This document shows positions 19,934-36,028 of a DNA stretch of 63,822 nucleotides, in pieces. The stretch comes from Clostridiales bacterium. GTDB taxonomy: Bacteria > Bacillota > Clostridia > Oscillospirales > CAG-272. Location: assembly GCA_012522015.1 (NCBI GenBank), contig JAAYLD010000066.1:1-63822 (forward strand), given 5' to 3'. The position numbers were made by a program, and so were the translations under genes. The notes beneath the pieces were generated by a model, which made no database searches, was not told where the DNA came from, and saw only the letters and a list, made by a program, of their open reading frames with translations. Numbering within the stretch: the stretch's first letter is position 1; every line of letters starts with the position of its first letter.

Positions 19934-20359
19934 GTGACATATTTTTTCGGTGAATACCAGCAAGTTATCGATTCTAAAAACCGAATATTCATCCCTGCCA
20001 AGTTTCGTGAAATATTAGGTGAAAAGGCATACATCGCACGGAACGTAGACGGATGCCTATCCATTTATACGGAAGAAGGATGGCGCGCTTACTGCGATAA
20101 GATACTGTCGCTCCCCTCGGCAGAGGGCAGCGCGCTTGCGCGCTTCATATTCCCGGCAACGCTCGATGCGAAGATCGACTCGCAGGGGCGTATAGTTTTA
20201 ACACAGCAGATGAAGGAATACGCTGGGCTTGAAAAGGAAATATGTATAATAGGTGTCGGCGATCACGCAGAGATTTGGGATAAAGCCAGACGCCAGGCAT
20301 ATATAAACAATGAAAAAACGGAGGAGCTGATAGCGCTCATGCTCCGCAAACAGTTTTAA
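19934..20359 (+). CDS. mraZ: Division/cell wall cluster transcriptional repressor MraZ
   Basis: IDSKNRIFIPAKFR and IDSQGRIVL SpoVT/AbrB repeats; GVGDHAEIWD. Confidence 0.96.
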   Translation: MTYFFGEYQQVIDSKNRIFIPAKFREILGEKAYIARNVDGCLSIYTEEGWRAYCDKILSLPSAEGSALARFIFPATLDAKIDSQGRIVLTQQMKEYAGLEKEICIIGVGDHAEIWDKARRQAYINNEKTEELIALMLRKQF

Positions 20360-20364
20360 GATGC

Positions 20365-21453
20365 ATGGAGAAGAAAGCTTCTCATCGAAAGGATAAGAAT
20401 ATAAAAAATATAAATAAGGATAACAATACCCGCCGGAGCGGTGCGGCACGCGAAGGCGATTCCATTATACGGGGAATGGCTGCCGGGGATGCGCTAACAT
20501 CGGAGACAGCTCCCGTGTTTTCGCATCTCCCGGTAATGCTCCACAGTGCTGTTGGGGGCCTTGCAATAAAACCCGGCGGTGTTTACGTTGACTGCACAGC
20601 AGGCGGAGGAGGTCATTCGGAAGCAATAGCCGAGCACTTATCCGGTGGAGGGTTGCTCATTGCTATTGACCGTGATGCCGACGCAATAGAAGCATGTCAA
20701 AAAAGGCTTTCTCGATTTGGCGATACTGTAAAGATTGTCCATGATAATTATGTAAATCTTCCGGCAATACTCGATGATCTTGGGATAAAAGAAATCGATG
20801 GCATTTTAATGGATCTTGGTGTGTCGTCGCACCAGCTTGACACAATAGAACGAGGTTTTTCCTACAGCACAGATAAAGACGCGCCGCTTGATATGCGTAT
20901 GGACAGAAGCTCGCCGCTTGATGCAAGCATAGTTGTAAACAGCTACAGTGAGGACGAGCTTTGCAGAATAATACGCGACTACGGCGAAGAGCGTTATGCA
21001 GCAAGAATAGCCAAAAGGATTGTTGAGGAGCGGGAGCGCGAGCCAATTTTAACGACGCGGCGCCTCTCCGAGATAATTAAATCAGCAGTACCGGCAGCTT
21101 CTGTTCAGCACGGGTCACATCCGGCAAAAAGGACATTTCAAGCGATACGCATAGAAGTAAACGGTGAGCTTGATGCGATTGAACCGACGCTCAGATTTGC
21201 CATCTCCGTGATGAGGAGCGGTGGACGAGCATCGGTGATAACGTTTCATTCGCTTGAAGATAGAATTGTTAAGACTCTTTTTACAGAACTATCGGTTAGA
21301 TGTACCTGTCCGCCGGATTTTCCGGTTTGTGTGTGCGGCAAGCGGCCGTCACTGAAAATTATCAATAAAAAGCCGATAACTGCAGATGAAGAAGAATTGA
21401 AAATGAACCCGCGCAGCCGAAGCGCAAAGCTTCGTATCTCAGAAAAGATATAA
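20365..21453 (+). CDS. rsmH: 16S rRNA m4C1402 methyltransferase
   Basis: HLPVML, VDCTAGGGGHS, DLGVSSHQLD, PLDMRMD, TFHSLEDRIVK and NPRSRSAKLR motifs; about 50 aa N-terminal extension. Confidence 0.97.
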   Translation: MEKKASHRKDKNIKNINKDNNTRRSGAAREGDSIIRGMAAGDALTSETAPVFSHLPVMLHSAVGGLAIKPGGVYVDCTAGGGGHSEAIAEHLSGGGLLIAIDRDADAIEACQKRLSRFGDTVKIVHDNYVNLPAILDDLGIKEIDGILMDLGVSSHQLDTIERGFSYSTDKDAPLDMRMDRSSPLDASIVVNSYSEDELCRIIRDYGEERYAARIAKRIVEEREREPILTTRRLSEIIKSAVPAASVQHGSHPAKRTFQAIRIEVNGELDAIEPTLRFAISVMRSGGRASVITFHSLEDRIVKTLFTELSVRCTCPPDFPVCVCGKRPSLKIINKKPITADEEELKMNPRSRSAKLRISEKI

Positions 21454-21482
21454 CTGGATTGCCGACGGAAGGAGGAGGCGTG

Positions 21483-22511
21483 ATGACAAATCAAACTGCC
21501 GTTTTATATAACGGTCATGTCGCACGCGGCAACAGGGGGACGCGGTCAAATGCTGTTGCCATGCCGAGTGTCCGCCATTATCCTGCTGCAGATGCCGGGA
21601 CCGCTAAGCTCGTGAACAAGCTGCGCTCACGCAGCAGTAAAACTTTTTACGCTATCAGCAGGCAAAACTCATCTGATTTAATGAAAATGGCCTATATGAT
21701 GCCGGCATTTTATCAATCGACACCGGTAGTTAGTAGTGTCAGCGTTAATATAAACGAAAACCGAAATAACATGGTGAGAACAGCACCAGTCCATACAGCA
21801 GCTAAGGTTGGCACAGGCACAAGATATTCTGCTTCTATATCAGCTCAGGCAAAAACAAGAGGAGCGGAAGTTCGAAGACAGCCATATACAGCGGCGGTGA
21901 CCTCATCAAACAGGGTTATAAATAAGCCCGTAAACGGGCGTGTAAACGCACCGGTGAATCAACATTTACACCCGCTTCCGTCATCACAGCAGAAGCAGCT
22001 TCGCTCATCAAGTGTAAGCAAAAACAGCGGATATCCGGCTTCTCGCGCTAACAGTGTAAGCGGACAAAGACGCACACACAATGGTAGGAAAGCATATGCA
22101 AAAGCGCATGGGAATTATCATGCGGTCATAGCAAAAAAACCGATGCCGCTTATGTCGCTTTCACTTATCGTTCTTTGTGCCGCGCTGTTAATGATGATTA
22201 TTTACAGCGCAATGCAGAATTATCAGTATAAAAATGAGATAGCGGAACTTCAGTCAAAACTTACCTCTCTTAAGGCGGAAGCAGAAGATTTAAGGCTTTC
22301 GCTTGAAGCACGCGATGATCTTGCTGAAATTGAGAAGCGTGCCGTTGAGATTGGAATGGTCAAAACGGGTCAGGTCGAACAGCGGTACATAGATATCGGC
22401 GCACCCGATGCTGTTGAGAACTTAAAGACTGAAGGAAATGAACCTGCTACGCTTGCGACGATGTTCAGCGCATTTGGTCGAACGCTCTCAAGATTCTTTT
22501 CGAGAAAGTAA
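21483..22511 (+). CDS. ftsL: FtsL-like cell division protein with about 220 aa N-terminal extension
   Basis: Sits between rsmH and the PBP. Single TM, then a coiled coil ending DLAEIEKRAVEIGMVK; RBS GGAGGAGG. Confidence 0.75.
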   Translation: MTNQTAVLYNGHVARGNRGTRSNAVAMPSVRHYPAADAGTAKLVNKLRSRSSKTFYAISRQNSSDLMKMAYMMPAFYQSTPVVSSVSVNINENRNNMVRTAPVHTAAKVGTGTRYSASISAQAKTRGAEVRRQPYTAAVTSSNRVINKPVNGRVNAPVNQHLHPLPSSQQKQLRSSSVSKNSGYPASRANSVSGQRRTHNGRKAYAKAHGNYHAVIAKKPMPLMSLSLIVLCAALLMMIIYSAMQNYQYKNEIAELQSKLTSLKAEAEDLRLSLEARDDLAEIEKRAVEIGMVKTGQVEQRYIDIGAPDAVENLKTEGNEPATLATMFSAFGRTLSRFFSRK

Positions 22512-22624
22512 AGTTTCCGCTATACAGGGTTAAAAAGCTCGTTCCTTGAGATGTTATTTTAAAACAAGCGGGTTGTGTCATAAGCGAAGCCCGTATTAAG
22601 TAAAATTAATATTGATAGCGATAA

Positions 22625-22664
22625 AAAAGAGTAAGGAGTCAAAAAAACAACTCGTTACTCTTTT
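22625..22664 (+). terminator. Hairpin/terminator between ftsL and the PBP gene
   Basis: AAAAGAGTAAGGAGT...ACTCGTTACTCTTTT. Confidence 0.6.
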
Positions 22665-22769
22665 CTAATCTATTAGCTCTATTAGCTTATTATGTTTTAG
22701 GCCGTGATATTGTTATAAAACTACGAAAAAGCGCCATGGGCATAAATGAAATATTGAGGAGAAGAGTAT

Positions 22770-25136
22770 ATGAATATCAGCAAAAGAATAACAAGACGCG
22801 CGCTTGTTGTACTCGGCGTTTACATCCTCTTGTGGATTTTGCTGTCCGTTGTGCTCTTCAAACTTCAAATACTTTCTTATGATTATTATCAGAACCTTGT
22901 TATCAAGCAGATGACGAAGGAAACAACAGTCACGGCCTCGCGCGGCAGTATTTACGATACAAATATGAATCTTTTGGCCGGCAATAAGACTGTCTGGCTT
23001 ATAGTCATATCTCCGCAGGACATTATTGACGCTATGGCTGACGCTGAAAAAGCTAAGGCGGCTGCTTCTAATGCAACAGAATCCTCCGATACGACAGAAG
23101 ACGATAGAAGAATATATGGGGAGTATGAATATACAGGGCCTGATGGGAAAACAGAAGTGCTGCCAATGAATAAACTCATTGCAAGGGCACTTTCCGATAT
23201 ACTTGGCGTTGATTATGACCGTGTTATAGAACTTGCAGCCAAAAACGGGCGATACTATGAAGTTATAAAAAAGAATGTTGAAAAAGAAGAAGCAGATAAA
23301 GTTCGTGCTTTCATCGACGAATACGGGCTGGAGGATCAGATATACCTAAAAGCAAGCACAAAGCGTTATTATCCGAATTGTTCGCTTGCCAGTCATGTAA
23401 TAGGATTTTGCAATGCTGACGGTGTCGGTGTTTATGGTATTGAAGCATACTACAACGACGTACTTGAAGGAAGTTCCGGCACATACATAACGGCACGAAG
23501 CGGAACGGGCGGCGATTTGCCATATGAATATGAAACATATATTGATGCTCGGGATGGCTATAGCATCGTAACGACAATAGACAGCTATATACAGTACGAG
23601 CTTGAAAACGTCCTCCTTGAAACGATGACCGAGAACAACGCTCAAAACCGCGTTGCTGGTATCGTTATGGATGTAAACACGGGAGCTATACTTGCGATGG
23701 CGACGCTTGGCGGCTTTGATTTAAACAAGCCGTACGAGCTGCCGGATTATTATGCAAGTCTTCTTGATGAAAAGGGTCTTGAGGAGGGAACGGACGAATA
23801 TAATAAAGCTTATTTCGACATTCTTTATGGAATGTGGACGAACAAAGCGGTTACCGAACTTTACGAGCCCGGCTCCACGTTTAAAATTATAACGACATCT
23901 ATAGCACTTGAGACGAACACGTCTAAGCTTACCGATAAATTTACATGCTCAGGAAGCTTAAAGGTTGGCGGCTTTAATATAAGCTGTCATAAGACAATCG
24001 GACATGGCACGCTGAATTTTGCTGAAGCACTGCAGAATTCATGCAACCCTGCCCTGATGACGATAGCGGCACGCGTCGGGCGGGAAGATTTCTATAAATA
24101 TTTTAAAATATTTGGCTATGGCGAAAAAACCGGCATAGACCTACCGGGTGAAGCTAAAGCTTATTACCACAGCTACAGTAATTTTTCTGATGTTTCACTT
24201 GCTGTTTATGCATTTGGTCAGACGTTTAAGGTGACGTCAATACAGCACTTGCTGGCAATAAGCGCGGTTGCTAATGGCGGTTATCTTGTGACGCCTCATG
24301 TAATGCGTGAAATTATTGATTCCGACGGAAATGTTATACAGTCATATGAACCGAATGTTGTAAGGCAGGTTATTAGCACGGATGTAAGTAAAAAGATTTC
24401 AGCTATTCTTGAGGAAGGTGTATCAGGCAGCGGCGGCGCGAAGAACGCATATGTCGCCGGTTATAGGGTAGCAGCGAAGACAGGTACGTCTCAAAAGCGC
24501 GACAAGCTTGATGAGCACGGTCAGGATACGCTTCGCGTAAGCTCCTGCGTCGCTTATGCACCGGTTGATAACCCGCAGGTAGCAGTTTTGATACTTGTCG
24601 ATGAGCCGTCAAGTGGCGTTGTTTATGGCTCGCTTGTCGCAGCACCGTATGTATCAAAGCTACTGTCGTTCGTACTTCCGTATATAGGCATTGAACCGCA
24701 GTATGCGGACAGCGAGGAAGCGTCGATTGAGAAGACAATATCAAATTATGTTGGTATGGACATTGAGGTTGCTAAGGCTGCAGCGGAGGCTGCAGAGCTT
24801 GAATATATCATTGTCGGTGACGGAAGTGAAGTCACAGCGCAGTCACCGTCATCAGGAACAATAGTATCGAAGATATCGAAGCTCCTCGTTCTTTATACTG
24901 GCTCTGAAAAGCCGAAAAATACAGTTGAGGTTCCCGATGTCGTTGGAAAAACGGCAGAAGCGGCAAACAGACTCATAATAAACAAAAAGCTTAATATAAG
25001 AATAGCAGGCGCTGCTAACTATGCGAGCGGCAGCGGAGCAACAGTTATATCACAGAGTCCGGAGGCGGGTACGTTCGTCCCCGAAGGAACTGTCGTAACT
25101 GTTGAGTTCATGCACCTCTCAGATATAAGTGACTAA
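22770..25136 (+). CDS. Class B penicillin-binding protein (FtsI/SpoVD type) with two PASTA domains
   Basis: N-terminal TM, RGSIYD, EPGSTFK (SxxK), SCN, KTGT, and C-terminal PASTA repeats (ISNYVG, VPDVVG). Confidence 0.95.
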   Translation: MNISKRITRRALVVLGVYILLWILLSVVLFKLQILSYDYYQNLVIKQMTKETTVTASRGSIYDTNMNLLAGNKTVWLIVISPQDIIDAMADAEKAKAAASNATESSDTTEDDRRIYGEYEYTGPDGKTEVLPMNKLIARALSDILGVDYDRVIELAAKNGRYYEVIKKNVEKEEADKVRAFIDEYGLEDQIYLKASTKRYYPNCSLASHVIGFCNADGVGVYGIEAYYNDVLEGSSGTYITARSGTGGDLPYEYETYIDARDGYSIVTTIDSYIQYELENVLLETMTENNAQNRVAGIVMDVNTGAILAMATLGGFDLNKPYELPDYYASLLDEKGLEEGTDEYNKAYFDILYGMWTNKAVTELYEPGSTFKIITTSIALETNTSKLTDKFTCSGSLKVGGFNISCHKTIGHGTLNFAEALQNSCNPALMTIAARVGREDFYKYFKIFGYGEKTGIDLPGEAKAYYHSYSNFSDVSLAVYAFGQTFKVTSIQHLLAISAVANGGYLVTPHVMREIIDSDGNVIQSYEPNVVRQVISTDVSKKISAILEEGVSGSGGAKNAYVAGYRVAAKTGTSQKRDKLDEHGQDTLRVSSCVAYAPVDNPQVAVLILVDEPSSGVVYGSLVAAPYVSKLLSFVLPYIGIEPQYADSEEASIEKTISNYVGMDIEVAKAAAEAAELEYIIVGDGSEVTAQSPSSGTIVSKISKLLVLYTGSEKPKNTVEVPDVVGKTAEAANRLIINKKLNIRIAGAANYASGSGATVISQSPEAGTFVPEGTVVTVEFMHLSDISD

Positions 25137-25262
25137 AAATTTCATATGAAATAAACGTTGAAGCGCCAAAACATATAAGCGTTATAGCAGCACGAAAAAC
25201 ACGGACAAAGTAAAAAAAGGACGTTTTTTGAGAAGAATCCAATATAAAATGGAGGCGTCCTT

Positions 25263-26795
25263 TTGAAACTTTCACGTCTTTTTGCAGCGGCCGGCATACC
25301 GTGCCGTTTGCCAGACAGGGAAATTACAGGCATCACATCGGATAGCCGGTGTGTTTATGAGGGATTTATATTTGTCGCTGTGCGCGGAGCGCAAACAGAC
25401 GGCATACGCTTTGCTGCGGATGCTGTTCGGCGCGGGGCTGCCGTGATTGTAGCGGAGACGGAGCCGGAGGGGCTTCGGGTCGGTGATACTGAAGCATCGG
25501 TTGTTATAGTTCCGTCTGCAAGGGAAGCTGTGGCGCGTCTGTGCTCTGCTTGGTATTTTGCCGATGCTGTTGAACGCGGAGGGCGTCGTCCCAGAATCAT
25601 AGCTGTTACCGGCACGAATGGCAAAACGACGGTAACACACATGATAACGGCGATTTTATCGGCGGCGGGGTATAAAACAGGACTTATAGGTACTGTTGGA
25701 TGTATTCTTGGCGGAGAGCGCATCATTGCGCCTGACGGGATGACGACGCCGGCGCCGGAAAACTTTTACCGCATAATGTATGAAATGTACTGCGGTGGCG
25801 CTGAATTTATTGTATTTGAAGCAAGCTCGCATGGCATAGCGCAAGGGCGTCTTGCGGGGCTTCCGCTTGTCGGGCCACTTGATGTGGCCGTATTTACAAA
25901 TCTTACGCCGGAACATCTTGACTACCATCGCGACATAGAAGATTATTTCCAAGTTAAGGCGCGGCTTTTTACAGAATTTTCTCCCGCAACCTCGGTTGTA
26001 AACGTTGACGATCAGTACGGCGAGCTGATTGCTGCCATGTGCACCGGGCGTCTGATTACGGCAGGTGTGCGAGATGACACAGCCGCCGAGTGGAAAGCCG
26101 CTGAGCGTGAGTTTTACGGCACGGGCGGTGTCGGGTATTTGCTTTCATCGCCCGACCTTACGCTTCGTGTGTTTTGTCCGACGCCGGGCGGCTTCACATA
26201 TATAAACACACTTGAAGCTCTTGCGTGCGCCATAGCTGTCGGAGTTGATCCTCCTGTCGCACAAGAGGCAATACGCGTATTTTATGGCGTAAAGGGGCGT
26301 ATTGAGCGCGTGAAAACAGATGCGACAAAGTTCGCGGGGGATGTGTTTATTGATTATGCGCACACACCGGCAGCACTTGAGGGACTTTTGCGGACAGTTC
26401 GTGCTTTCACTGATGCACGCCATAGAATAGTCCTTCTTTTCGGGTGCGGCGGGGATCGTGACAAAGCAAAACGCCCGCTTATGGGCGAGATTGCATCAAG
26501 GCTATCTGATTATGTTATAATTACAAGCGACAACAGGCGTGGGGAATCAGCTTGGCGAATAATTGCCGACATAATGAGCGGCTATAACATCAATACACCG
26601 CACATAATCATATCAGACAGGGAAACTGCTATCCGTCACGCAATTTTGGAGGCAAAAGACGGGGATGTTATACTGCTTGTCGGCAAAGGCCATGAAACAT
26701 ACGATGATGCGGGCGGTATAAAGCGACCGTTTGACGAGCGAGAGGTAGTTTTTGCGGCGGTAAACGACAGATACCGTATAATAAGTGGGAGATAA
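25263..26795 (+). CDS. murE: UDP-MurNAc-tripeptide synthetase
   Basis: TTG start; VTGTNGKTT, EASSHG, FTNLTPEHLDYH, DYAHTP and GCGGDRD motifs; DNRR at the DNPR site. Confidence 0.96.
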   Translation: MKLSRLFAAAGIPCRLPDREITGITSDSRCVYEGFIFVAVRGAQTDGIRFAADAVRRGAAVIVAETEPEGLRVGDTEASVVIVPSAREAVARLCSAWYFADAVERGGRRPRIIAVTGTNGKTTVTHMITAILSAAGYKTGLIGTVGCILGGERIIAPDGMTTPAPENFYRIMYEMYCGGAEFIVFEASSHGIAQGRLAGLPLVGPLDVAVFTNLTPEHLDYHRDIEDYFQVKARLFTEFSPATSVVNVDDQYGELIAAMCTGRLITAGVRDDTAAEWKAAEREFYGTGGVGYLLSSPDLTLRVFCPTPGGFTYINTLEALACAIAVGVDPPVAQEAIRVFYGVKGRIERVKTDATKFAGDVFIDYAHTPAALEGLLRTVRAFTDARHRIVLLFGCGGDRDKAKRPLMGEIASRLSDYVIITSDNRRGESAWRIIADIMSGYNINTPHIIISDRETAIRHAILEAKDGDVILLVGKGHETYDDAGGIKRPFDEREVVFAAVNDRYRIISGR

Positions 26796-26913
26796 TCATT
26801 ATACCAAGCAAATCTGGGTTGGACTTACTCCGGTATAATGTATAACGTCGCATTTGATATACAAGAAAAAAGAAAAGATAGGAGGCAAGTGGTGGCTTCA
26901 CGGTAATAAAGAT

Positions 26914-28458
26914 ATGGAAATAAAAAATAGAAGCGTTAATATAAATAATATTCAAAATGAAGATATAAAGTCAGCCGAAAATATAAAGGAAAGCAACACA
27001 AAGCAAACGGGGGGAGAAAACAGCGCTCTGCTTTCCGTTTGTCCGCTTACAGCGGAGCTGATAGCAAATATAACGGGCGGGGACGTCATACCTGTGAATG
27101 GCGGCTTCGGCGGTGAGTCGAGAGTCTTTACAAAGGATTCCCGCGAGGTGTCGGAGGGATGTATTTTTGTTGCAATACGCGGGGAAAAGTATGACGCACA
27201 TGATTTTATTACGCAGGCTATAGAAGGAGGCGCACGGATAATAATAGCTGAGCGGTGCCCTGCGGCTGATACGCTTCCATGCGGCGCTGATGTTGTAATA
27301 GTCCATAATACCGTCGCAGCAATGGGCGCTCTTGCAGCCTATTTCATAGAAAAGAGCGGCGCAAAAACAATAGCTGTGACAGGCAGTGTCGGTAAAACGA
27401 CGACGAAAGAGTTGATTGCCACTGTTTTATCGGAGCGATACAAAACGCATAAAACGGAAGGCAATAAAAATAATGAGATAGGACTTCCGCTCACAGCGCT
27501 TTCTATGCCATCCGACGCTGAATACGGCGTTTTTGAAATGGGGATGAGCGCTCGTGGCGAGATAGGAGCGCTTTCACGCATTGTAAAGCCCAACATTACC
27601 GTCATAACAAATATCGGTACCGCGCATATGGAGCGTCTCGGCAGCCGCGAAAACATAGCAAAGGCGAAGCTGGAGGTGCTTTGGGGTATGAGCGAGGGCA
27701 GGATCCTTATAATCAACGCGGACGAGCCTCTTCTGACGCATGCTGATGTAAGTCCAGCTAAAGCAGTAACTGTTTCGCTTTACAGCCGATCGGCTGATTA
27801 TCGTGCAGTTAACATCCGTCAGATAGGCGGCGGCATGATATTTGATCTCATCTATAACAGTAAAGTCTGCACGAACGTCGAAATCCCTATACTTGGCACG
27901 CACAATGTTTTGGACGCACTTTACGCCTTCGCCATCGGTATCATCGAGGGAATGACTGAGGAGGAGATTAGGCGCGGGCTTAGGAAATTCCGTGGCGTGT
28001 CGATGAGACAGCGTATATATGACATCTCAGGCGTCACGATAATCGAGGACTGCTATAATGCAAGCCCTGAGTCTATGAGAGCTGGGATTGACGTTCTTTG
28101 CTCCATGGCAAAGGAGAAAGGAGGGCGTCCCGCCGCTCTTCTTGGCGATATGCTTGAGCTTGGCGAATATTCAAGCCTGCTACATGAACAGCTTGGCATA
28201 TACGCGGCGCGCGCCGGTGTGAAACTTCTTTTCACATATGGCCCTTTTGCCGAAAATATAGCTCACTCGGCAATTACAAATGGCATACGAGCTGAAAACG
28301 TTTATGTTAACCTTAATTACACAGATCCTGCATCAACAGGGGAAATGATACTCAGCGCGCTTCGTCCGGGTGATGTACTGCTTGTAAAAGCAAGCCGTGC
28401 AGTCGCAGCAGAGAAGGTTATTGAATATATTAAGGGAAGGAAGTTCGCCGGCGTTTGA
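26914..28458 (+). CDS. murF: UDP-MurNAc-pentapeptide synthetase
   Basis: VTGSVGKTTTKE, NNEIGLP, EMGM, DCYNASPES, GDMLELG and KASR motifs; start position uncertain. Confidence 0.96.
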   Translation: MEIKNRSVNINNIQNEDIKSAENIKESNTKQTGGENSALLSVCPLTAELIANITGGDVIPVNGGFGGESRVFTKDSREVSEGCIFVAIRGEKYDAHDFITQAIEGGARIIIAERCPAADTLPCGADVVIVHNTVAAMGALAAYFIEKSGAKTIAVTGSVGKTTTKELIATVLSERYKTHKTEGNKNNEIGLPLTALSMPSDAEYGVFEMGMSARGEIGALSRIVKPNITVITNIGTAHMERLGSRENIAKAKLEVLWGMSEGRILIINADEPLLTHADVSPAKAVTVSLYSRSADYRAVNIRQIGGGMIFDLIYNSKVCTNVEIPILGTHNVLDALYAFAIGIIEGMTEEEIRRGLRKFRGVSMRQRIYDISGVTIIEDCYNASPESMRAGIDVLCSMAKEKGGRPAALLGDMLELGEYSSLLHEQLGIYAARAGVKLLFTYGPFAENIAHSAITNGIRAENVYVNLNYTDPASTGEMILSALRPGDVLLVKASRAVAAEKVIEYIKGRKFAGV

Positions 28459-28477
28459 TTTCGGCGGCGTGATATTT

Positions 28478-29491
28478 ATGACGTCAACGCTGTCATATAT
28501 TATTATTGCCACAGGCCTTGCGACGTTTATTCTTACATTTATCTTTTCAAAAAAAATAATACCGGTTCTAAAAAGCCATAAAATGGGGCAGAAGATTCTT
28601 GATATAGGGCCGAGGTGGCATAAATCGAAGGAAGGCACGCCCACAATGGGCGGAATTATCTTCATTCTTGCGTCGACTTTGTCGCTTATCGGTGCGGAGA
28701 TAGCCTTTGCCCTTGCCGGATGGGGTGTTCCGAAGCTTCTCACAGCTACGTTTGTCTACGCGCTTGCCAACGCTTTTATCGGCTGTGTTGACGACACGGC
28801 AAAGCTTATGCGCCGGCAAAACGAAGGCCTGACAGTGCGTCAGAAAATAGCACTTCAGATTTTCGTTTCACTTTTGTATATTGCAGCTCTTGTGTGGCTT
28901 AGCGGGCCTAAAACGGAGCTTTATATACCATTTGCTGACATTACTATCGACCTTGGATGGTATTATTACGCATTTGCCCTCATCCTGCTTGTCGGAATGG
29001 TCAACAGCGTCAATTTAGCTGACGGTATAGACGGGCTTGCCTCATCTGAGGTTTTCGTTGTTTCTCTCTTTTATATTGCCGCTGCATATTCCGGAAAAAA
29101 CGTGAACTCTTCGACCGATGCGGAGATAGCTCTCCTTGGCGCCGTGACAGCCGGTTGTGCCGCGGGGTTCCTTATCTACAATTTTCACCCCGCACGGGTG
29201 TTTATGGGTGATACTGGCTCCCTCTTTTTTGGAGCAATCGTTGTCGGCGGCTCCTTTATTATGGATAACCCGCTGCTCTGTGTTGTCTTTGGCTTTATGT
29301 TTGTGCTTGAATCGCTGTCGGACATTGTTCAGGTGCTTTATTTCAAGGCAACACGCGGTAAACGCTTCTTTAAAATGGCGCCGCTTCACCACCATTTTGA
29401 AAAATGCGGATGGAGCGAGAATAAAATTGTCGCTGTCTTCACACTTGCAACGGCAATTTTATGCGTTCTTTCATATTTCGGACTTGGTTAA
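28478..29491 (+). CDS. mraY: Phospho-MurNAc-pentapeptide transferase
   Basis: KEGTPTMGG, VNLADGIDGL, FMGDTGSL and MAPLHHHFE motifs. Confidence 0.97.
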   Translation: MTSTLSYIIIATGLATFILTFIFSKKIIPVLKSHKMGQKILDIGPRWHKSKEGTPTMGGIIFILASTLSLIGAEIAFALAGWGVPKLLTATFVYALANAFIGCVDDTAKLMRRQNEGLTVRQKIALQIFVSLLYIAALVWLSGPKTELYIPFADITIDLGWYYYAFALILLVGMVNSVNLADGIDGLASSEVFVVSLFYIAAAYSGKNVNSSTDAEIALLGAVTAGCAAGFLIYNFHPARVFMGDTGSLFFGAIVVGGSFIMDNPLLCVVFGFMFVLESLSDIVQVLYFKATRGKRFFKMAPLHHHFEKCGWSENKIVAVFTLATAILCVLSYFGLG

Positions 29492-29550
29492 TCATAAAAT
29501 CATACAGTAATAAAAGCATTTAAAGTAAGCGTGAGGGAGGTGACGCGAAG

Positions 29551-30969
29551 ATGAATTCAGGGCAAAAGGAAATTCAGCGCCAAAAAGCAGGGCAAAACCA
29601 AAGCCATAGACGAGTTAAAATTATAGGTACGACGTCAGCTGCAAAAAATCAGGCGAAATCAAGCTCTGGTGTTGCCGTGAAATCATACGACGCTGCGCCA
29701 CCCACAAGCGTCGGGTACGGCACTGCCCGCGCGAAAAAGACTAAAGCAAGTACTCCGCTACCAACGCAGGTAAACGCACAACAGGAGAGAGCTGTCGCGC
29801 CAACAAACGCAACGGCATCTGAGGGAAGGCGTGAATACATAAGAGTTAAAGTTGCGCCTGACAGGATAATGATAGTGCTGATATTGCTACTTGTATCCAT
29901 CGGTTCCGTTGTGGTTTTCAGTGCGAGTTATCCATATGCTTTGAGCCGAGGCCTTGACAGCTATTATTATGTCAGACGCCAGATAGTGTTTGTTGCGCTT
30001 GGGCTTTTCGTAATGGCGGTTATCATGAGGCTTCCGCATACGCTCATTAAGCGCTGTGCGCCTATTGTCTACGGCGTTGCTTTTGTCCTGCTTATTGTTG
30101 TTTTATTCATCGGCGTTTCAGAAGGTGCTGCGAGGCGATGGATATACATAAAAGGTGCTGGCATTACAATCCAACCGTCTGAGATAATGAAAGCGGGACT
30201 TGTTATGATGCTTGCTTGGTATATAGACAGGCGGGTAGAGGATATACAAAAAGGAGCGCCTACCAAGCGCAGGCTTATTTACGGAGTTATCGTTCCTGGC
30301 GCTTTCATCGTAGCCGCGTGCGGTCTTGTCCTGCTTGAAAAGCATCTCTCTGGAACCTTAATTTTATTTATAATCGGTGCCATTGTTATGTTTATAGGCG
30401 GCTCAAGTGTCGGCTGGATGTCGGTAATTTTCGGCGCGCTTGGCATATCCAGCGGGACTGCTTATCTTTTGGCAAACCCGTATGCTCTGCAGCGTGTTTT
30501 AACATTCCTTGACGAAAATGCCGATAAACTTGATGAGGAGTGGCAGACATATCAAGGGCTGCTTGCTATCGGGTCGGGCGGGCTTTTCGGGCTCGGCCTT
30601 GGTGAGAGCCGTCAAAAGTTTAGCTATATATCCCAGCCTCAAAACGACTATATTTTTACAGTTTGGTGTGAGGAGATGGGATATATAGGTGCCATCACCG
30701 TCATACTGATATTCATAGTGTTTATCTGGCGCGGTTTCACTATTGCGATGCGTGCGCCTGACACATTTTCATCGCTGACAGTATTCGGCATAATAAGCCA
30801 TGTCGCGATACAGGCGATACTTAATGTTGCTGTCGTTACGGACACGATACCTAACACGGGCATTTCGCTCCCATTTTTCTCGTACGGCGGCTCATCACTG
30901 ATTATTTTGCTGGCTGAGATGGGGGTAGTTTTGTCAATATCACGTTATTCACGGCAGCGAAAGCTGTAG
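29551..30969 (+). CDS. ftsW: SEDS peptidoglycan polymerase FtsW/SpoVE with about 100 aa N-terminal extension
   Basis: GAARRWI, IQPSEIMK, GSGGLFGLGLG, NDYIFTVWCEEMG and LPFFSYGGSS motifs. Confidence 0.95.
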   Translation: MNSGQKEIQRQKAGQNQSHRRVKIIGTTSAAKNQAKSSSGVAVKSYDAAPPTSVGYGTARAKKTKASTPLPTQVNAQQERAVAPTNATASEGRREYIRVKVAPDRIMIVLILLLVSIGSVVVFSASYPYALSRGLDSYYYVRRQIVFVALGLFVMAVIMRLPHTLIKRCAPIVYGVAFVLLIVVLFIGVSEGAARRWIYIKGAGITIQPSEIMKAGLVMMLAWYIDRRVEDIQKGAPTKRRLIYGVIVPGAFIVAACGLVLLEKHLSGTLILFIIGAIVMFIGGSSVGWMSVIFGALGISSGTAYLLANPYALQRVLTFLDENADKLDEEWQTYQGLLAIGSGGLFGLGLGESRQKFSYISQPQNDYIFTVWCEEMGYIGAITVILIFIVFIWRGFTIAMRAPDTFSSLTVFGIISHVAIQAILNVAVVTDTIPNTGISLPFFSYGGSSLIILLAEMGVVLSISRYSRQRKL

Positions 30970-31027
30970 CTTTAAACACCGCGTATGTGGGAAACACATA
31001 CGCGTACGCAATAAAATCCGAAAGGAC

Positions 31028-32179
31028 ATGCATTTATCTAAAATGAGAGTACTAATGACGGGCGGCGGGACCGGTGGACATGTTAATCCAGCAATCGCTA
31101 TCGCTGAAACGATAAAATTAAATATTCCGGGCAGTGTGATTGCTTTTGTCGGTACGCCACGCGGTATAGAAAATAAGCTTGTAAAGGCGGCGGGGTACGA
31201 ACTTTATCATGTTGATGTCCGCGGGCTGCGCCGTTCGCTTTCTTTTGCAAATTTTAAGGCGGCATACCTTGCCCTGACGTCACCCGGGCAAGCGAAAAAG
31301 ATTATCCGGAACTTTAAGCCCGATATTGTTATTGGCACAGGAGGTTATGTAAGCTGGCCGGTTCTGCGGGCGGCTGCATCGCTTGGTATACCGTCGATGA
31401 TACATGAGTCAAACGCTTATCCCGGTGTGACGACGCGTATGCTTGCCCGCCACATTGATACGATACTGCTCAATTTTGAAAAAACAGCCGAATATTTAAA
31501 ACCTCTGCGGCCGAAGAAGATGGTGCTTGTCGGAAATCCTCTTAGGAGCGGATTTTTTGCGTCGTCAGCAAAGACAGCGTCTGCAAGTGTGAGCGTATCC
31601 GACGCTAAGGAAGGTTATCAAAAAATGATACTTTCCTACGGCGGAAGCCTTGGGGCTCAGCACATAAACGAAGCTGTCCTCGCCATGATGCGCGATTATA
31701 CGAAGCATCACCCCGAAATCCTTCATATATTAGCCGCAGGGTCAATCGAGTGGGAAGATGCGAATAAGATGTTTGACGACTATGGGCTTCGCGGATATCC
31801 AAATCTGCGGCTTGTTGAGTATATTTACGATATGCCACATCGCATGGCAGCCGCTGACCTTATCATCTGCCGCGCCGGAGCAATGACGGTGTCTGAAATT
31901 GCGGCAATGCGGCGGGCGGCGATTTTTATCCCATCGCCAAACGTCACTGAGAACCATCAATACAAAAATGCCCGCGTACTTGAGGAAGCAGGCGCTGCCG
32001 TTATAATCGAGGAAAAGGATCTTACAGGAGAAAGCCTTACGGCGGTAGTGGACGCCCTTCTTAGAGATGATAAGCGGCGTCGTGCAATGGGGGATGCGGC
32101 AGGCGCTTTTGCCATTGAGGATGCTAATAAGCGAATATTCAAAGAAATATGTGCTCTCACAGGATATAAAAAACTATAA
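31028..32179 (+). CDS. murG: Undecaprenyl-PP-MurNAc-pentapeptide GlcNAc transferase
   Basis: GGGTGGHVNP, HESN, GGSLGA, CRAGAMT and ENHQYKNA motifs. Confidence 0.97.
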   Translation: MHLSKMRVLMTGGGTGGHVNPAIAIAETIKLNIPGSVIAFVGTPRGIENKLVKAAGYELYHVDVRGLRRSLSFANFKAAYLALTSPGQAKKIIRNFKPDIVIGTGGYVSWPVLRAAASLGIPSMIHESNAYPGVTTRMLARHIDTILLNFEKTAEYLKPLRPKKMVLVGNPLRSGFFASSAKTASASVSVSDAKEGYQKMILSYGGSLGAQHINEAVLAMMRDYTKHHPEILHILAAGSIEWEDANKMFDDYGLRGYPNLRLVEYIYDMPHRMAAADLIICRAGAMTVSEIAAMRRAAIFIPSPNVTENHQYKNARVLEEAGAAVIIEEKDLTGESLTAVVDALLRDDKRRRAMGDAAGAFAIEDANKRIFKEICALTGYKKL

Positions 32180-32357
32180 ATAATTATGTTGTTTTAGATA
32201 ATGAAGTGCGTTATCATCAGATTTGCGGACAAGCATAGGCGAGGCAGGCGCATTTAACAAAACACCTTTAAATTTTTTATGAGGAGGAAACTGATGTGAC
32301 GGTGCGAAAACACCACTTGGTTCGGGTGCTCTTAGCTCAAGGAAGCGCAGACAAGGT

Positions 32358-33521
32358 GTGGTGTGTACAAGCATGAGCACGGGCATGACGCGTAATATGC
32401 AAGAGCCAAATTCAGCACGAGCAAATCTGCGTATAAAATCCGTCGCACCCTCCGCAGCAGTTTGGTCAAATAAGTACGGAAACATCACCGCTAAAGGGCG
32501 GGTGAGTACTGTTCGTCCAGCTTCAACTTCCCTCCCGACAAAGGAATCAATGCGGCAGGAGGATTCACAGCACAAGAGTCTGCAACAAAAGAGAGGTCAA
32601 CAAGATGTGAAAGCAGAGTCTATATCAGCGAAACGTAAGGAAAGACTTCGCCACGATGAAAAACTAAATCGTGATGCGGAGGTGGCTGAGGCTTATATAT
32701 GGACGCGCCGCCGACGGGCTCGTGCGCGTTTATATGCAATTATAGTTATCTGTATTGCGCTCATAGCGCTGTCTTCTTATGTCATTTACAAAGGCGTTTT
32801 TGTTGTTAAAAGCATATCTGTCGAGTTGCCGGGTGACGAGGCATCTCAATATTCGGAGTTGGATATAATCGCCGCTGCCGGTATTACAGAAGGGGATGGA
32901 ATGTTTTCCTTTTCTTCTGCAAAGATAAAGCAGGCAGTGATTAGGGTGTGTCCATATATCTCCGATGTTACAATTCGCAGGAAATATCCTGACGGCATTT
33001 TGATTTCTGTCACCGAGGAAAAAGCAGTGTTTTACACAGTAATTTCAGGGCAGTATGCGCTTGTTTCACCGACATTTCGCGTCCTTGAGTTTATTGGTGG
33101 TGACGACGGTGTTGAAGATGCGGCAAGGGCGGCTGAGTATGTAAAAAACGCAGGGCTGATAAAGCTTAAATTGCCGCGTGTGACGGAGGTAATAGCCGGT
33201 TTCCCAATAAAACTTGAGGCAAGTGAAAATAACGGCGAAATGGAAGATATAGTGCTCACTGTTCTTGCAAGAGTGGCACAGGATGATTTTATTGATCGCA
33301 TCAGTGTTGTCGGAGCTACAAATCGCTTTGCTCTTTATATGGTGTGCGATTGTAAGTATAGATTTGAGCTCGGATCTGTCGACGATCTTGACGTAAAAAT
33401 GACACTTGCTGATAAAATGCTTCGCGATGAGATCTTTGCGACGGGAAATAAAGGTACGCTTTATTTATCAGATGTAACTCAGCCAAGCGTTATCATTGAC
33501 AACAGAATTGATCTTGATTAA
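32358..33521 (+). CDS. ftsQ: Cell division protein FtsQ/DivIB, start codon uncertain
   Basis: Between murG and ftsZ. Basic N-terminal tail, single TM, and a POTRA region (CPYISDVTIRRKYPDGILISVTEE). The frame is open from 32295. Confidence 0.85.
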   Translation: MVCTSMSTGMTRNMQEPNSARANLRIKSVAPSAAVWSNKYGNITAKGRVSTVRPASTSLPTKESMRQEDSQHKSLQQKRGQQDVKAESISAKRKERLRHDEKLNRDAEVAEAYIWTRRRRARARLYAIIVICIALIALSSYVIYKGVFVVKSISVELPGDEASQYSELDIIAAAGITEGDGMFSFSSAKIKQAVIRVCPYISDVTIRRKYPDGILISVTEEKAVFYTVISGQYALVSPTFRVLEFIGGDDGVEDAARAAEYVKNAGLIKLKLPRVTEVIAGFPIKLEASENNGEMEDIVLTVLARVAQDDFIDRISVVGATNRFALYMVCDCKYRFELGSVDDLDVKMTLADKMLRDEIFATGNKGTLYLSDVTQPSVIIDNRIDLD

Positions 33522-33848
33522 ATATGTTTTATAAATCAAAACGTAATTTTTACATAGAACAATCAATAATTGCGGTATTATTACAATATTTTTTCATAAA
33601 ACATATTGCAAAAAACAATAAAGTATATTATTCTATAGATAATAGTACACATTTTGTTGAAATAGGCACGCGTCTATCTCAGCAATATTAGACATATGAA
33701 TAACAAAACGCTGCGGTAACTTGTGAGCATACGATGTGTGCCGCCGTGGTGTCTTTGTTTGTAGCGGAACTAAAGTAAACTAAATTAAAATGTAAAAGAA
33801 AAGAAAAAGAAAGGCGCGCCAAAAAAACGCACCGGAGGAGAACCTAAT

Positions 33849-35162
33849 ATGGCATTTGAGCTTGACGATAGTTTTGAAAGCGGCGTAAATATAAAAGTCG
33901 TCGGCGTTGGTGGAGGCGGCAGTAACGCTGTGAACCGCATGATATCATCGCACATACGCAGCGTCGATTTTATATGTATCAACACAGACAAACAGGCTCT
34001 GCAGCAGAGCAGTGCCCAGAATAAAATTGCTATTGGTGAAAAAATAACGAAAGGCCATGGTGCCGGTGCTGATCCCGAAATCGGACGCCAGGCGGCTGAG
34101 GAAAGCATTGAGGAAATTAAAAGTGCTCTTTCCGATGCTGACATGGTGTTTATAACGACTGGTATGGGAGGCGGCACTGGAACTGGAGCCGCACCTCTCA
34201 TCGCAAAAGCGGTGAAGGAAATGAACATACTGACAATTGCCATCGTTACAAAGCCTTTTGCTTTTGAAGGAAAACGCAGAATGATGCAGGCAGAGGAAGG
34301 TATAGCAAACCTCAGCCAGTATGTTGACTCACTTGTTGTAATACCTAACGAGCGCTTAGCACAGGTGTCTGATGCGCGTATAACGCTTCTCAATGCGTTT
34401 GAAATAGCTGACGACGTGCTTCGTCATGGCGTTCAGAGCATTTCAGAGCTTATAAATGTGCCGGGTCTTGTAAACCTGGACTTTGCTGACGTATCAGCGA
34501 TAATGAAAGATGCGGGATACGCTCACATGGGCGTTGGCGAAGCGCAGGGCAAAGATAAAGCGGAGCTTGCTGCAAAAGCGGCAATATCATCTCCGCTTCT
34601 TGAGACATCCATCTCCGGCGCGCGAGGGATTCTTATCAGCATTACAGGTTCGCCCGATATCGGCCTTGATGACGTTATTCAAGCGTCGACAATGGTTGCG
34701 GCAGAAGCCCATCCGGAAGCAAACATCATCTGGGGCGCAAACTTTGATCCTTCGCTTGAAGACAAGATGAAGGTTACAATCATCGCGACCGGATTTGAAA
34801 AAAAGGATGATCCACGAGTACAGAAGCGCACAGACTCCGCTTTTGATAAGCGCGGCTCAAGTGCGGTGACTGCTGGCACAAGTGGCAGAGCTTTTGCTCC
34901 AAAATCAGAACCGGCGAAGAAGTCTCTTGCAGATATTATAGAAGAAAAACGCACAGGCAGGGATTTACGCGATATTCAAAGCCAGTCAGATATCCCTGGC
35001 GACGAGTTTGATTTAGACGAGAGTGATACTGAAACTCCACCTGAAATTGAAGAGGATATTTTAGGTGATGAAGATTTCGACGATCTAATCAGCATACTCA
35101 AAAAGCAGAAAAGACAAGAGGGCGGTTCTGCTGGTGTAAATCCGTACAAGAGAAGGTTTTAA
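33849..35162 (+). CDS. ftsZ: Cell division protein FtsZ
   Basis: VGVGGGGSNAVNRM, GMGGGTGTG, PFAFEG and NLDFADV motifs; RBS GGAGGAG. Confidence 0.99.
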   Translation: MAFELDDSFESGVNIKVVGVGGGGSNAVNRMISSHIRSVDFICINTDKQALQQSSAQNKIAIGEKITKGHGAGADPEIGRQAAEESIEEIKSALSDADMVFITTGMGGGTGTGAAPLIAKAVKEMNILTIAIVTKPFAFEGKRRMMQAEEGIANLSQYVDSLVVIPNERLAQVSDARITLLNAFEIADDVLRHGVQSISELINVPGLVNLDFADVSAIMKDAGYAHMGVGEAQGKDKAELAAKAAISSPLLETSISGARGILISITGSPDIGLDDVIQASTMVAAEAHPEANIIWGANFDPSLEDKMKVTIIATGFEKKDDPRVQKRTDSAFDKRGSSAVTAGTSGRAFAPKSEPAKKSLADIIEEKRTGRDLRDIQSQSDIPGDEFDLDESDTETPPEIEEDILGDEDFDDLISILKKQKRQEGGSAGVNPYKRRF

Positions 35163-35185: not shown

Positions 35186-35224
35186 AAAAACCCGGGCAAG
35201 CCAAATTGGCTTGCCCGGGTTTTA
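35186..35224. terminator. Bidirectional terminator between ftsZ and the convergent gene
   Basis: 19-bp perfect arms AAAAACCCGGGCAAGCCAA-A-TTGGCTTGCCCGGGTTTTT. Confidence 0.85.
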
Positions 35225-35254: not shown

Positions 35255-36028
35255 CTATGGGCTGCTGAACGATACGGAGATGTTATCAATTAGGACGGTA
35301 CCGTCTCCATATTCAATAACAGTGTAGAAAAGCGGGCGGGATGCATCGCTCTCTATATCATTTCTGAATGTACCGTTGTTTTTGAAGATTTTATATCCGA
35401 CTTTATAAACATAAGTCGTCTCGTTCGTTTCATTAGAAAAAGACTTAGAGATGTGTTTTATTTCAATGTCATATATTTTTTGAGGTGCAAATATTTCTTT
35501 ATTTTTATGATTTTTGAAATAATTCTCGGTAAAATATGAATCGTATTCTTCGTATTTACCCTCTATGACTGTCTTAAAATATCGTGCGAAAAAAGCGATC
35601 GGCGCGTCATATCTGCTGTAATCATCGTCGGTGATGTAAAACGTGTCCATCCCCTCGGTATATGCAATATACCTATTGAGATTCATGTACTCTTTGTCAT
35701 CATAAACGTTTTCCTCATAATTAGCTTCATAAAACCGAAGGCTTTTTATGCGATCAAGATAGTCTGATGTTACTTTCTTTTCATTAATCTTTTGTTCGAT
35801 ATAATTATAAAGGCTCTGAGCTGCCGGAACTCCAGCGTACCAGATAACAACAATGGCTAACATCGCGGCAAAGGTTAGTAGTATTGCGCGCTTCTGTTTT
35901 TGACGGCTGTTTTTATTGCCACCGGGCAAGGTATGTGCTGCTTCTGTGCCTTTTGTTGTGTGAAGTGTTATGTCATCGGTTGTTTTTACGAGATCGGCAG
36001 GCTTTTTATCGTTGTTAGTTTGTTTCAT
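35255..36028 (-). CDS. Hypothetical single-pass membrane protein with a Tyr/Asp-rich extracellular domain
   Basis: 257 aa ORF with a basic stretch then a TM (AILLTFAAMLAIVVIWYAGV); no family recognised. Confidence 0.75.
   Translation of the reverse strand: MKQTNNDKKPADLVKTTDDITLHTTKGTEAAHTLPGGNKNSRQKQKRAILLTFAAMLAIVVIWYAGVPAAQSLYNYIEQKINEKKVTSDYLDRIKSLRFYEANYEENVYDDKEYMNLNRYIAYTEGMDTFYITDDDYSRYDAPIAFFARYFKTVIEGKYEEYDSYFTENYFKNHKNKEIFAPQKIYDIEIKHISKSFSNETNETTYVYKVGYKIFKNNGTFRNDIESDASRPLFYTVIEYGDGTVLIDNISVSFSSP

Follow-up and report, generated by a model that had tools for sequence, protein, structure and literature searches.

The division gene ftsZ occupies positions 33849..35162 (plus strand; 437 amino acids, TAA stop) of a 63,822-nucleotide stretch of DNA, positions 1 to 63,822 of the forward strand of contig JAAYLD010000066.1 from a Clostridiales bacterium (GCA_012522015.1), hereafter called the window. 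Our analysis indicates that it encodes the ordinary, single FtsZ of a gut bacterium, with a proline-less C-terminal tail, and that SepF alone most likely holds the Z-ring at the membrane. A first-pass annotation of this DNA had pointed to a highly acidic linker and an unusual C-terminus in FtsZ, and had suggested an alternative or unknown tether for the Z-ring. Its facts were correct, while a new tethering system proved to be unnecessary: a lineage-specific variant of the known FtsZ-SepF system, with no new tether, is the most likely explanation.

The assignment of the gene leaves little room for doubt. The protein matches the TIGR00065 equivalog over residues 12-331 with 422 bits (cut-off 295.2), and it is the single FtsZ match in the whole genome. 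Pfam domains Tubulin and FtsZ_C span it up to residue 317, and the globular GTPase core was assigned to residues 1-317 (33849..34799, plus strand) from these domains and from an AlphaFold2 model built with 79 homologues, in which the predicted local distance difference test (pLDDT) score is above 90 over about residues 11-320. Both the GGGTGTG motif (residues 107-113) and the T7 loop NLDFADV (NLDFAD at 209-214) are invariant in the 79-sequence alignment. The segment 34800-35162 that follows the core is exactly residues 318-437, a tail of 120 residues, together with the stop codon. As read from its sequence, the tail is built in the usual way, with a linker first and then a conserved peptide and a variable region. 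Three of its features are lineage-specific, namely the length and charge segregation of the linker, the derived form of the peptide found across the order, and, in the clade, a long variable region with an RR[FY] end.

Nearly all partners of the Z-ring dock on the C-terminal peptide of FtsZ; the canonical form of this peptide is a common feature of FtsZ and not one that defines the family. The canonical pattern D/E-I/V-P-x-F/Y-L-R/K was not found here, and there is no D-I/V-P-x-F-L at or near the C-terminus of this FtsZ. Residues 408-420 (35070..35108, plus strand) instead carry the proline-less peptide EDFDDLISILKKQ, which is kept in the genus and the order. It aligns without gaps to DDTLDIPTFLRNR of B. 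subtilis, with Pro replaced by Ile and Phe by Ile (E408 D409 F410 D411 D412 L413 I414 S415 I416 L417 K418 K419 Q420), and its core DLISILKK answers to the canonical DIPxFLRx. Like the B. subtilis peptide, it begins acidic and ends basic, and its hydrophobic positions are retained. The annotation was right, then, that the terminal D-I/V-P-x-F-L is missing, but the peptide itself is not absent: what is present is a derived form, still recognisable as homologous to the conserved C-terminal peptide, in which Pro and Phe have been exchanged. A single helix is predicted by AlphaFold2 over residues 407-422 (DEDFDDLISILKKQKR), with a pLDDT of up to about 79.

Tails and partners were then compared within the class Clostridia. 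The order to which the bacterium belongs, of the Oscillospirales type, includes C. leptum, Anaeromassilibacillus, Acutalibacteraceae, Ruminococcaceae and Oscillospiraceae. Within the genus, DDDFDDL[MIL]xIL[KR]K is shared by all 18 species; the other families of the order read DD[FY]xDI[MI]xI[FL] followed by basic residues, and a pattern DDxFxDIMxIF is found order-wide. The peptide of Clostridium leptum DSM 753 is DDDDTFYDIMSIFNRK, which is likewise the order consensus, that of Anaeromassilibacillus senegalensis is DDDDTFTDIMSIFNRK, and that of a Caproiciproducens metagenome-assembled genome (MAG) is DDEDFTDIMSIFNRK. Proline is missing at the motif position in 37/37 genomes of the order with a complete tail, drawn from all 17 sampled families, and in all 78 complete tails of public relatives; Ile414 stands there in the present protein and Met in most of the order. 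By comparison, the proline is kept in 115/115 sampled Clostridia of other orders. These 115 genomes include 26 with an FtsA above the cut-off, 25 with a weaker or long FtsA-like protein and 64 with none. Outside the order the proline thus persists whether FtsA is present or not; its loss does not simply follow from the loss of FtsA, which was rejected as the cause on account of the 64 FtsA-less genomes. The peptide is under selection, as its pattern does not vary among the 18 species of the genus and can be recognised in each of the 17 families, and its distribution makes proline loss an order-level trait, the peptide being a derived form of the conserved one. No earlier description of FtsA loss or of a variant FtsZ tail in this clade was found in the literature searched. 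One public record, HRGM_Genome_3390 (L087), has an aberrant hydrophobic FtsZ end, ...KLRLSFLLFLE, unlike that of any relative; it is likely a frameshift or an assembly error in the record.

With regard to FtsA, the annotation had stated that the gene is missing from the cluster around ftsZ. This was confirmed, and the gene is missing genome-wide as well: a search of the whole genome with PF14450 and TIGR01174 gave only two proteins of about 340 amino acids, scoring 40-58 bits against a cut-off of 176. Both were rejected as FtsA, as they have the length of MreB and cover model positions 161-347 only. FtsA fell below the cut-off in 41/41 genomes of the order, including one closed and several 100%-complete genomes (ZipA was not searched for). 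The same search found FtsA or FtsA-like genes in 51/120 Clostridia of the class sample, and is therefore sensitive enough. The annotation had also suggested that FtsZ C-termini be set against the presence of ftsA and sepF. In the order, whose tails are proline-less in 37/37 genomes, FtsA was found in 0/41 and SepF in 40/41. MinC, EzrA and ZapA were not detectable in this genome. As for the class as a whole, no FtsA-like gene was found at E ≤ 1e-20 in 69 of the 120 sampled Clostridia (about 57%), and 13 more have only a long FtsA-like protein of 580-770 amino acids. An FtsA-less, SepF-bearing divisome would thus seem to be the majority state in the class Clostridia.

SepF, on the other hand, is encoded intact outside the window, on a separate contig (C4; L003:1420-2007, minus strand), and matches PF04472 with 92-94 bits (cut-off 27). 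The gene stands in a conserved cluster of yggS-like, sepF, yggT and ylmH genes, and the protein was found in 116/120 genomes of the class. AlphaFold2 predicts for SepF a helix at residues 3-12, a disordered acidic linker, an alpha/beta core and a C-terminal helix alpha3. The N-terminal helix, MGLMDKIKRIAGG, is amphipathic (hydrophobic moment 0.47, mean hydrophobicity 0.06, net charge +2), its MGFMDKIKK pattern is conserved in the genus, and it is predicted to be membrane-targeting. The core aligns with B. subtilis SepF 3ZIH over residues 81-153 (E = 1.5e-16, 64 bits), and without gaps with C. glutamicum SepF 6SAT, in which K125 corresponds to R135 and F131 to Y141. Mutations at K125 and F131 abolish FtsZ binding in C. 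glutamicum (PMC7118173). K/R and Y/F occupy these two columns order-wide. The unknown tether suggested at the outset thus found no support, given a SepF that has its membrane helix, its gene context and its contact positions. The annotation had itself named, as evidence that would speak against its proposal, an encoded FtsA or SepF that binds this tail normally together with basic tails that do not interact with FtsZ, and the presence of an intact SepF supplies half of this.

It was demonstrated previously that FtsZ and SepF suffice for a Z-ring in B. subtilis without FtsA, EzrA, ZapA, MinC and four more proteins (PMC11790237), and that SepF is needed in C. difficile, which lacks FtsA (PMC12871735). 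Since FtsA is absent, SepF is intact with its contact residues and sufficiency has been published, anchoring by SepF alone is the reading best supported. Such an arrangement is known from Actinobacteria, Cyanobacteria, archaea and C. difficile. We infer that SepF binds the proline-less FtsZ peptide. The SepF dimer would bind the DDFDDLISILKK helix in its alpha2/beta3 groove, and the amphipathic helix at the SepF N-terminus would insert into the membrane.

The known bacterial systems resemble this one in different respects. B. subtilis (Krol 2012, PMC3418248; 3ZIH) shares with it the phylum, the layout of linker, peptide and basic variable region, and the SepF core. It also has FtsA, EzrA, ZapA and MinC, whereas the present genome is without all four; its Pro372, which is required for SepF binding, is matched here by Ile414, and its variable region has 6 residues against about 17. 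C. glutamicum (6SAT; Sogues 2020, PMC7118173) likewise has a SepF-only divisome, with no FtsA or classical Z-ring regulators, and its contact residues K125 and F131 and its helix alpha3 have counterparts here in R135, Y141 and a predicted alpha3. However, the C. glutamicum tail DDLDVPSFLQ keeps D-x-P-x-F and binds as a proline-kinked hook, while the tail described here has no proline and is predicted to be a straight helix. C. difficile (PMC12871735) belongs to the same class, is also without FtsA and EzrA, and has SepF as an essential partner; it keeps an essential ZapA and lacks FtsW and FtsI, whereas this genome has FtsW and a class B penicillin-binding protein (PBP) and no ZapA. A tail with proline was found in the sampled Clostridia outside the order, a sample to which C. 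difficile itself does not belong.

Several observations weigh against anchoring by SepF alone. First, in B. subtilis the FtsZ substitution P372A abolishes SepF binding (PMC3418248), and in the C. glutamicum complex the proline lies at the turn of the peptide toward the alpha-interface of the SepF dimer (PMC8178401). Because the proline is needed in the one and placed at the turn in the other, a proline-less helix cannot bind in exactly the canonical manner. Secondly, FtsZ rings still form in C. difficile when SepF is depleted (PMC12871735), and therefore further tethers can exist in Clostridia. Thirdly, SepF of the order differs from 71 SepF proteins of other orders in or near alpha2, beta3 and beta4. 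The order-specific changes are L/V/I to T at 110, A-V to V-A at 125/126, Q to K at 134, S to A at 137, G to N/S at 139 and I to T at 140, all in columns that are otherwise well conserved. Finally, the genome is 94.5% complete.

The first two of these observations may be read in another way, namely that an order-specific adaptor replaced FtsA and docks on the proline-less helix, with SepF acting secondarily or at a later stage, for instance in recruiting the synthase. The peptide is altered in this order alone, other FtsA-less Clostridia keeping the proline, and a change so confined suggests a changed binding partner or a changed binding mode. In addition, B. subtilis SepF cannot bind the P372A tail (PMC3418248), and in C. 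difficile, where rings form without SepF, SepF mainly links the ring to the synthase (PMC12871735). However, no candidate adaptor was found, the gene next to ftsZ (35255-36028) being conserved in the sister species only, and SepF is retained across the order with validated FtsZ-contact residues. Replacement of FtsA by such an adaptor therefore seems unlikely.

It is conceivable, and we put it forward tentatively, that FtsZ and SepF of this order co-evolved a non-hook binding mode in which a straight, acidic amphipathic helix without proline lies on a remodelled SepF groove, possibly in an archaeal-like manner, with an additional contact, in the genus and its neighbours, between the RR[FY] end of FtsZ and the acidic SepF tail. 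In a comparison uncorrected for phylogeny, the way in which the order-specific SepF substitutions cluster around the groove for FtsZ is suggestive and may serve as a lead; they could stem from co-adaptation or simply carry phylogenetic signal. The archaeon M. smithii (7AL2; Pende 2021, PMC8178401) likewise has a SepF-only system and a proline-less, acidic and hydrophobic tail. When the archaeal NEDQLDDFIDGIF is aligned without gaps to EDFDDLIS, its ion-pairing Asp residues fall on E408, D409 and D412, its Phe on F410 and its Ile on I414, and on either side a terminal aromatic residue is conserved in a sub-clade. Unlike the archaeal protein, the SepF encoded here is of the bacterial type, with a strong match to B. 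subtilis and no evident eta1 insertion, and the FtsZ tail is without the GID motif on which archaeal tails centre. The resemblance to archaeal tails may serve as a lead.

The additional contact concerns the two C-termini. In FtsZ the peptide is followed by a basic variable region, residues 421-437 (KRQEGGSAGVNPYKRRF; 35109..35159, plus strand), which ends in RRF-COOH at 35151-35159. A terminal [RK]R[FY]-COOH is kept in the genus and in several neighbouring genera, and in 20/79 public relatives, although the spacer before it ranges in length from about 6 to about 50 residues. In SepF, all 18 C-termini recovered from the genus (18/18) carry an extension of the form REQR[RK], a Q/P-rich stretch, a D/E run and [YF]x[YF]-COOH. 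The ends read, for example, ...EPDDTYSF (in the present genome, ...QPGEPDDTYSF) or ...EEETNYGY, the genus relatives compared being L242-L262; SepF of most other families of the order ends in ...DELENNG[VL][FY]F. G-R-R-[FY]-COOH in FtsZ and the acidic tail in SepF co-occur in the genus, and most other families of the order have neither. In M. smithii, FtsZ reaches the second SepF protomer through its terminal Phe (PMC8178401), and by analogy the basic-aromatic end of FtsZ and the acidic-aromatic end of SepF could make a second contact. The evidence for it is weak because it rests on a single evolutionary event. In the Ruminococcus sp. MAGs L050, L051 and L057 a G/N/Y-rich spacer of about 40-50 residues (e.g. 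...GGNNPYGNGGNNPYGNFGYGNGGN...) lies between the proline-less peptide and a terminal DFGRRY, and it resembles a prion-like low-complexity region.

The predicted helix bears also on another proposal of the first-pass annotation, that FDDLISILKK is an amphipathic helix that binds the membrane directly, which would make FtsZ self-anchoring as in Mycoplasma genitalium (Mycoplasma group 1E type). The AlphaFold2 helix is indeed continuous over 407-422, and FDDLISILKKQ, with a moment of 0.55 and a hydrophobicity of 0.02, is similar to the helix of the cell's own SepF (0.47 and 0.06). FDDLISILKKQ thus agrees in moment and hydrophobicity with membrane-targeting helices; it does not have their net cationic charge. 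Mycoplasma FtsZ proteins without the canonical peptide do bear a membrane-binding amphipathic helix (bioRxiv 10.1101/2023.08.29.555414). In M. genitalium, as here, the canonical consensus is lost and the C-terminus forms an amphipathic helix; the mycoplasma helix, however, binds the membrane, is 23 residues long and belongs to wall-less cells in which FtsA is still present, while the helix described here has about 16 residues and an acidic N-terminus and is clearly homologous to the docking peptide. The charge speaks against the membrane as its target, as the helix is short and non-cationic (its net charge lies between 0 and -1 in this protein and near -3 in the order consensus), and the -17 acidic block just upstream should repel anionic membranes. 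It also aligns residue for residue with a protein-docking motif, and the order as a whole has kept a dedicated anchor in SepF. Direct binding of this helix to the membrane is therefore regarded as very improbable.

The linker upstream of the peptide is disordered according to AlphaFold2 (pLDDT < 50 over residues 328-403), as is the C-terminal end. Its proximal part, residues 318-380 (34800..34988, plus strand), is mildly basic, with 15 K/R against 10 D/E. The acidic block follows at residues 381-412 (34989..35084, plus strand), its last residues overlapping the conserved peptide. The count given in the annotation, 17 acidic and no basic residues out of 32, is exact for this segment, DIPGDEFDLDESDTETPPEIEEDILGDEDFDD, after which the sequence continues with LISILKKQKRQEGGSAGVNPYKRRF. 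Charge is thus segregated along the tail, being +5 over 318-380, -17 over 381-412 and +6 over 413-437. When 120 Clostridia FtsZ tails are ranked by acidity, this run comes second, with a net of 17 per 32 residues against a median of 4 and a 95th percentile of 11, and the tail itself has about 120 residues against a median of 58. The tail is unusual in degree only, and the acidic run is more than chance. Only a sister species with 86% identity equals this acidity, with composition kept and sequence different, which has the look of a disordered region under compositional constraint. We infer that the block, constrained in composition, serves as a spacer or tunes assembly and is not a docking site. 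An internal 'DIPGDEF' at residues 381-387 was considered as a vestigial docking peptide and rejected, the sister species being without it.

An acidic outlier of this kind might, as also suggested in the annotation, couple the Z-ring electrostatically to polycationic tails of FtsL, FtsW and FtsQ in the synthase complex and so bypass a dedicated anchor. Such tails do exist: long, basic, low-complexity cytoplasmic N-terminal extensions, counted from the predicted start codons, are encoded by ftsL (21459-22511; about 228 residues), ftsW (29551-30969; about 105) and ftsQ (32358-33521; about 125), with K+R against D+E of 33/5, 19/6 and 27/12, respectively. FtsW has moreover been proposed to contact FtsZ directly in FtsA-less mycobacteria, in work cited in PMC9939409. 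If coupling were electrostatic, the two partners might be expected to vary together, and in 62 relatives the acidity of the FtsZ linker showed no correlation with the net charge of the FtsQ tail (rho 0.008, p 0.95; of the three membrane proteins, FtsQ only was compared). The correlation with tail length was weak (rho 0.27, not corrected for phylogeny). Co-variation of linker and FtsQ tail was accordingly rejected, and the coupling is left without comparative support. Furthermore, basic FtsQ tails of 5-350 residues occur across the order regardless of FtsZ acidity; extreme acidity is confined to this species and its sister, while the tail peptide and SepF are order-wide; and juxtamembrane cytoplasmic segments are generically basic. 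Electrostatic coupling, like direct binding to the membrane, appears very improbable.

The genes around ftsZ are those of a dcw cluster (19934..35162, plus strand; Pfam matches and open reading frame (ORF) table), which comprises mraZ, rsmH, ftsL, a PBP2B-type transpeptidase, murE, murF, mraY, ftsW, murG, ftsQ/divIB and ftsZ. FtsL has its long N-terminus here and the class B PBP (PBP2B-type) bears PASTA domains. By Pfam matches and the ORF table, neither ftsA nor murD lies within the cluster, and ftsW stands directly 3' of mraY (28397-30969), without the murD that is usually found between them. The usual site of ftsA, between the end of ftsQ at 33521 and ftsZ, is an intergenic region (33522..33848, plus strand) with no ORF of at least 60 amino acids on the plus strand. 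A Shine-Dalgarno sequence, GGAGGAG, can be read at 33834..33840 (plus strand), 8 nucleotides 5' of the ftsZ ATG. Downstream of ftsZ lies a strong bidirectional intrinsic terminator (35187..35223), whose stem of 17 bp includes 10 G-C pairs and which has T-runs on either strand. Across this shared terminator, and convergent on ftsZ, the gene at 35255-36028 (minus strand) encodes a protein of 257 amino acids for which a single transmembrane segment is predicted and neither Pfam nor NCBIfam gave a match. It is kept beside ftsZ solely in the sister species (81% identity), and was rejected as a conserved adaptor for that reason.

The proline of the FtsZ peptide has been termed 'fully conserved across species' (PMC3418248) and 'almost universally conserved' (PMC8178401). 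Two things are new here: an entire order has naturally lost a proline on which SepF binding depends in B. subtilis, and, at the level of the genus, FtsZ proteins ending in RR[FY] go together with SepF proteins that bear an acidic tail. FtsA loss alone does not free the peptide to change, as the FtsA-less Clostridia of other orders keep their proline. Taken together, the above results suggest that an ecologically important gut order, including C. leptum, Anaeromassilibacillus and Caproiciproducens, replaced this proline while relying, most likely, on SepF alone. The order would then be a natural counterpart of the engineered minimal FtsZ and SepF divisome of B. subtilis, and may be regarded as a natural experiment on whether SepF recognises the shape of the peptide or its specific residues.

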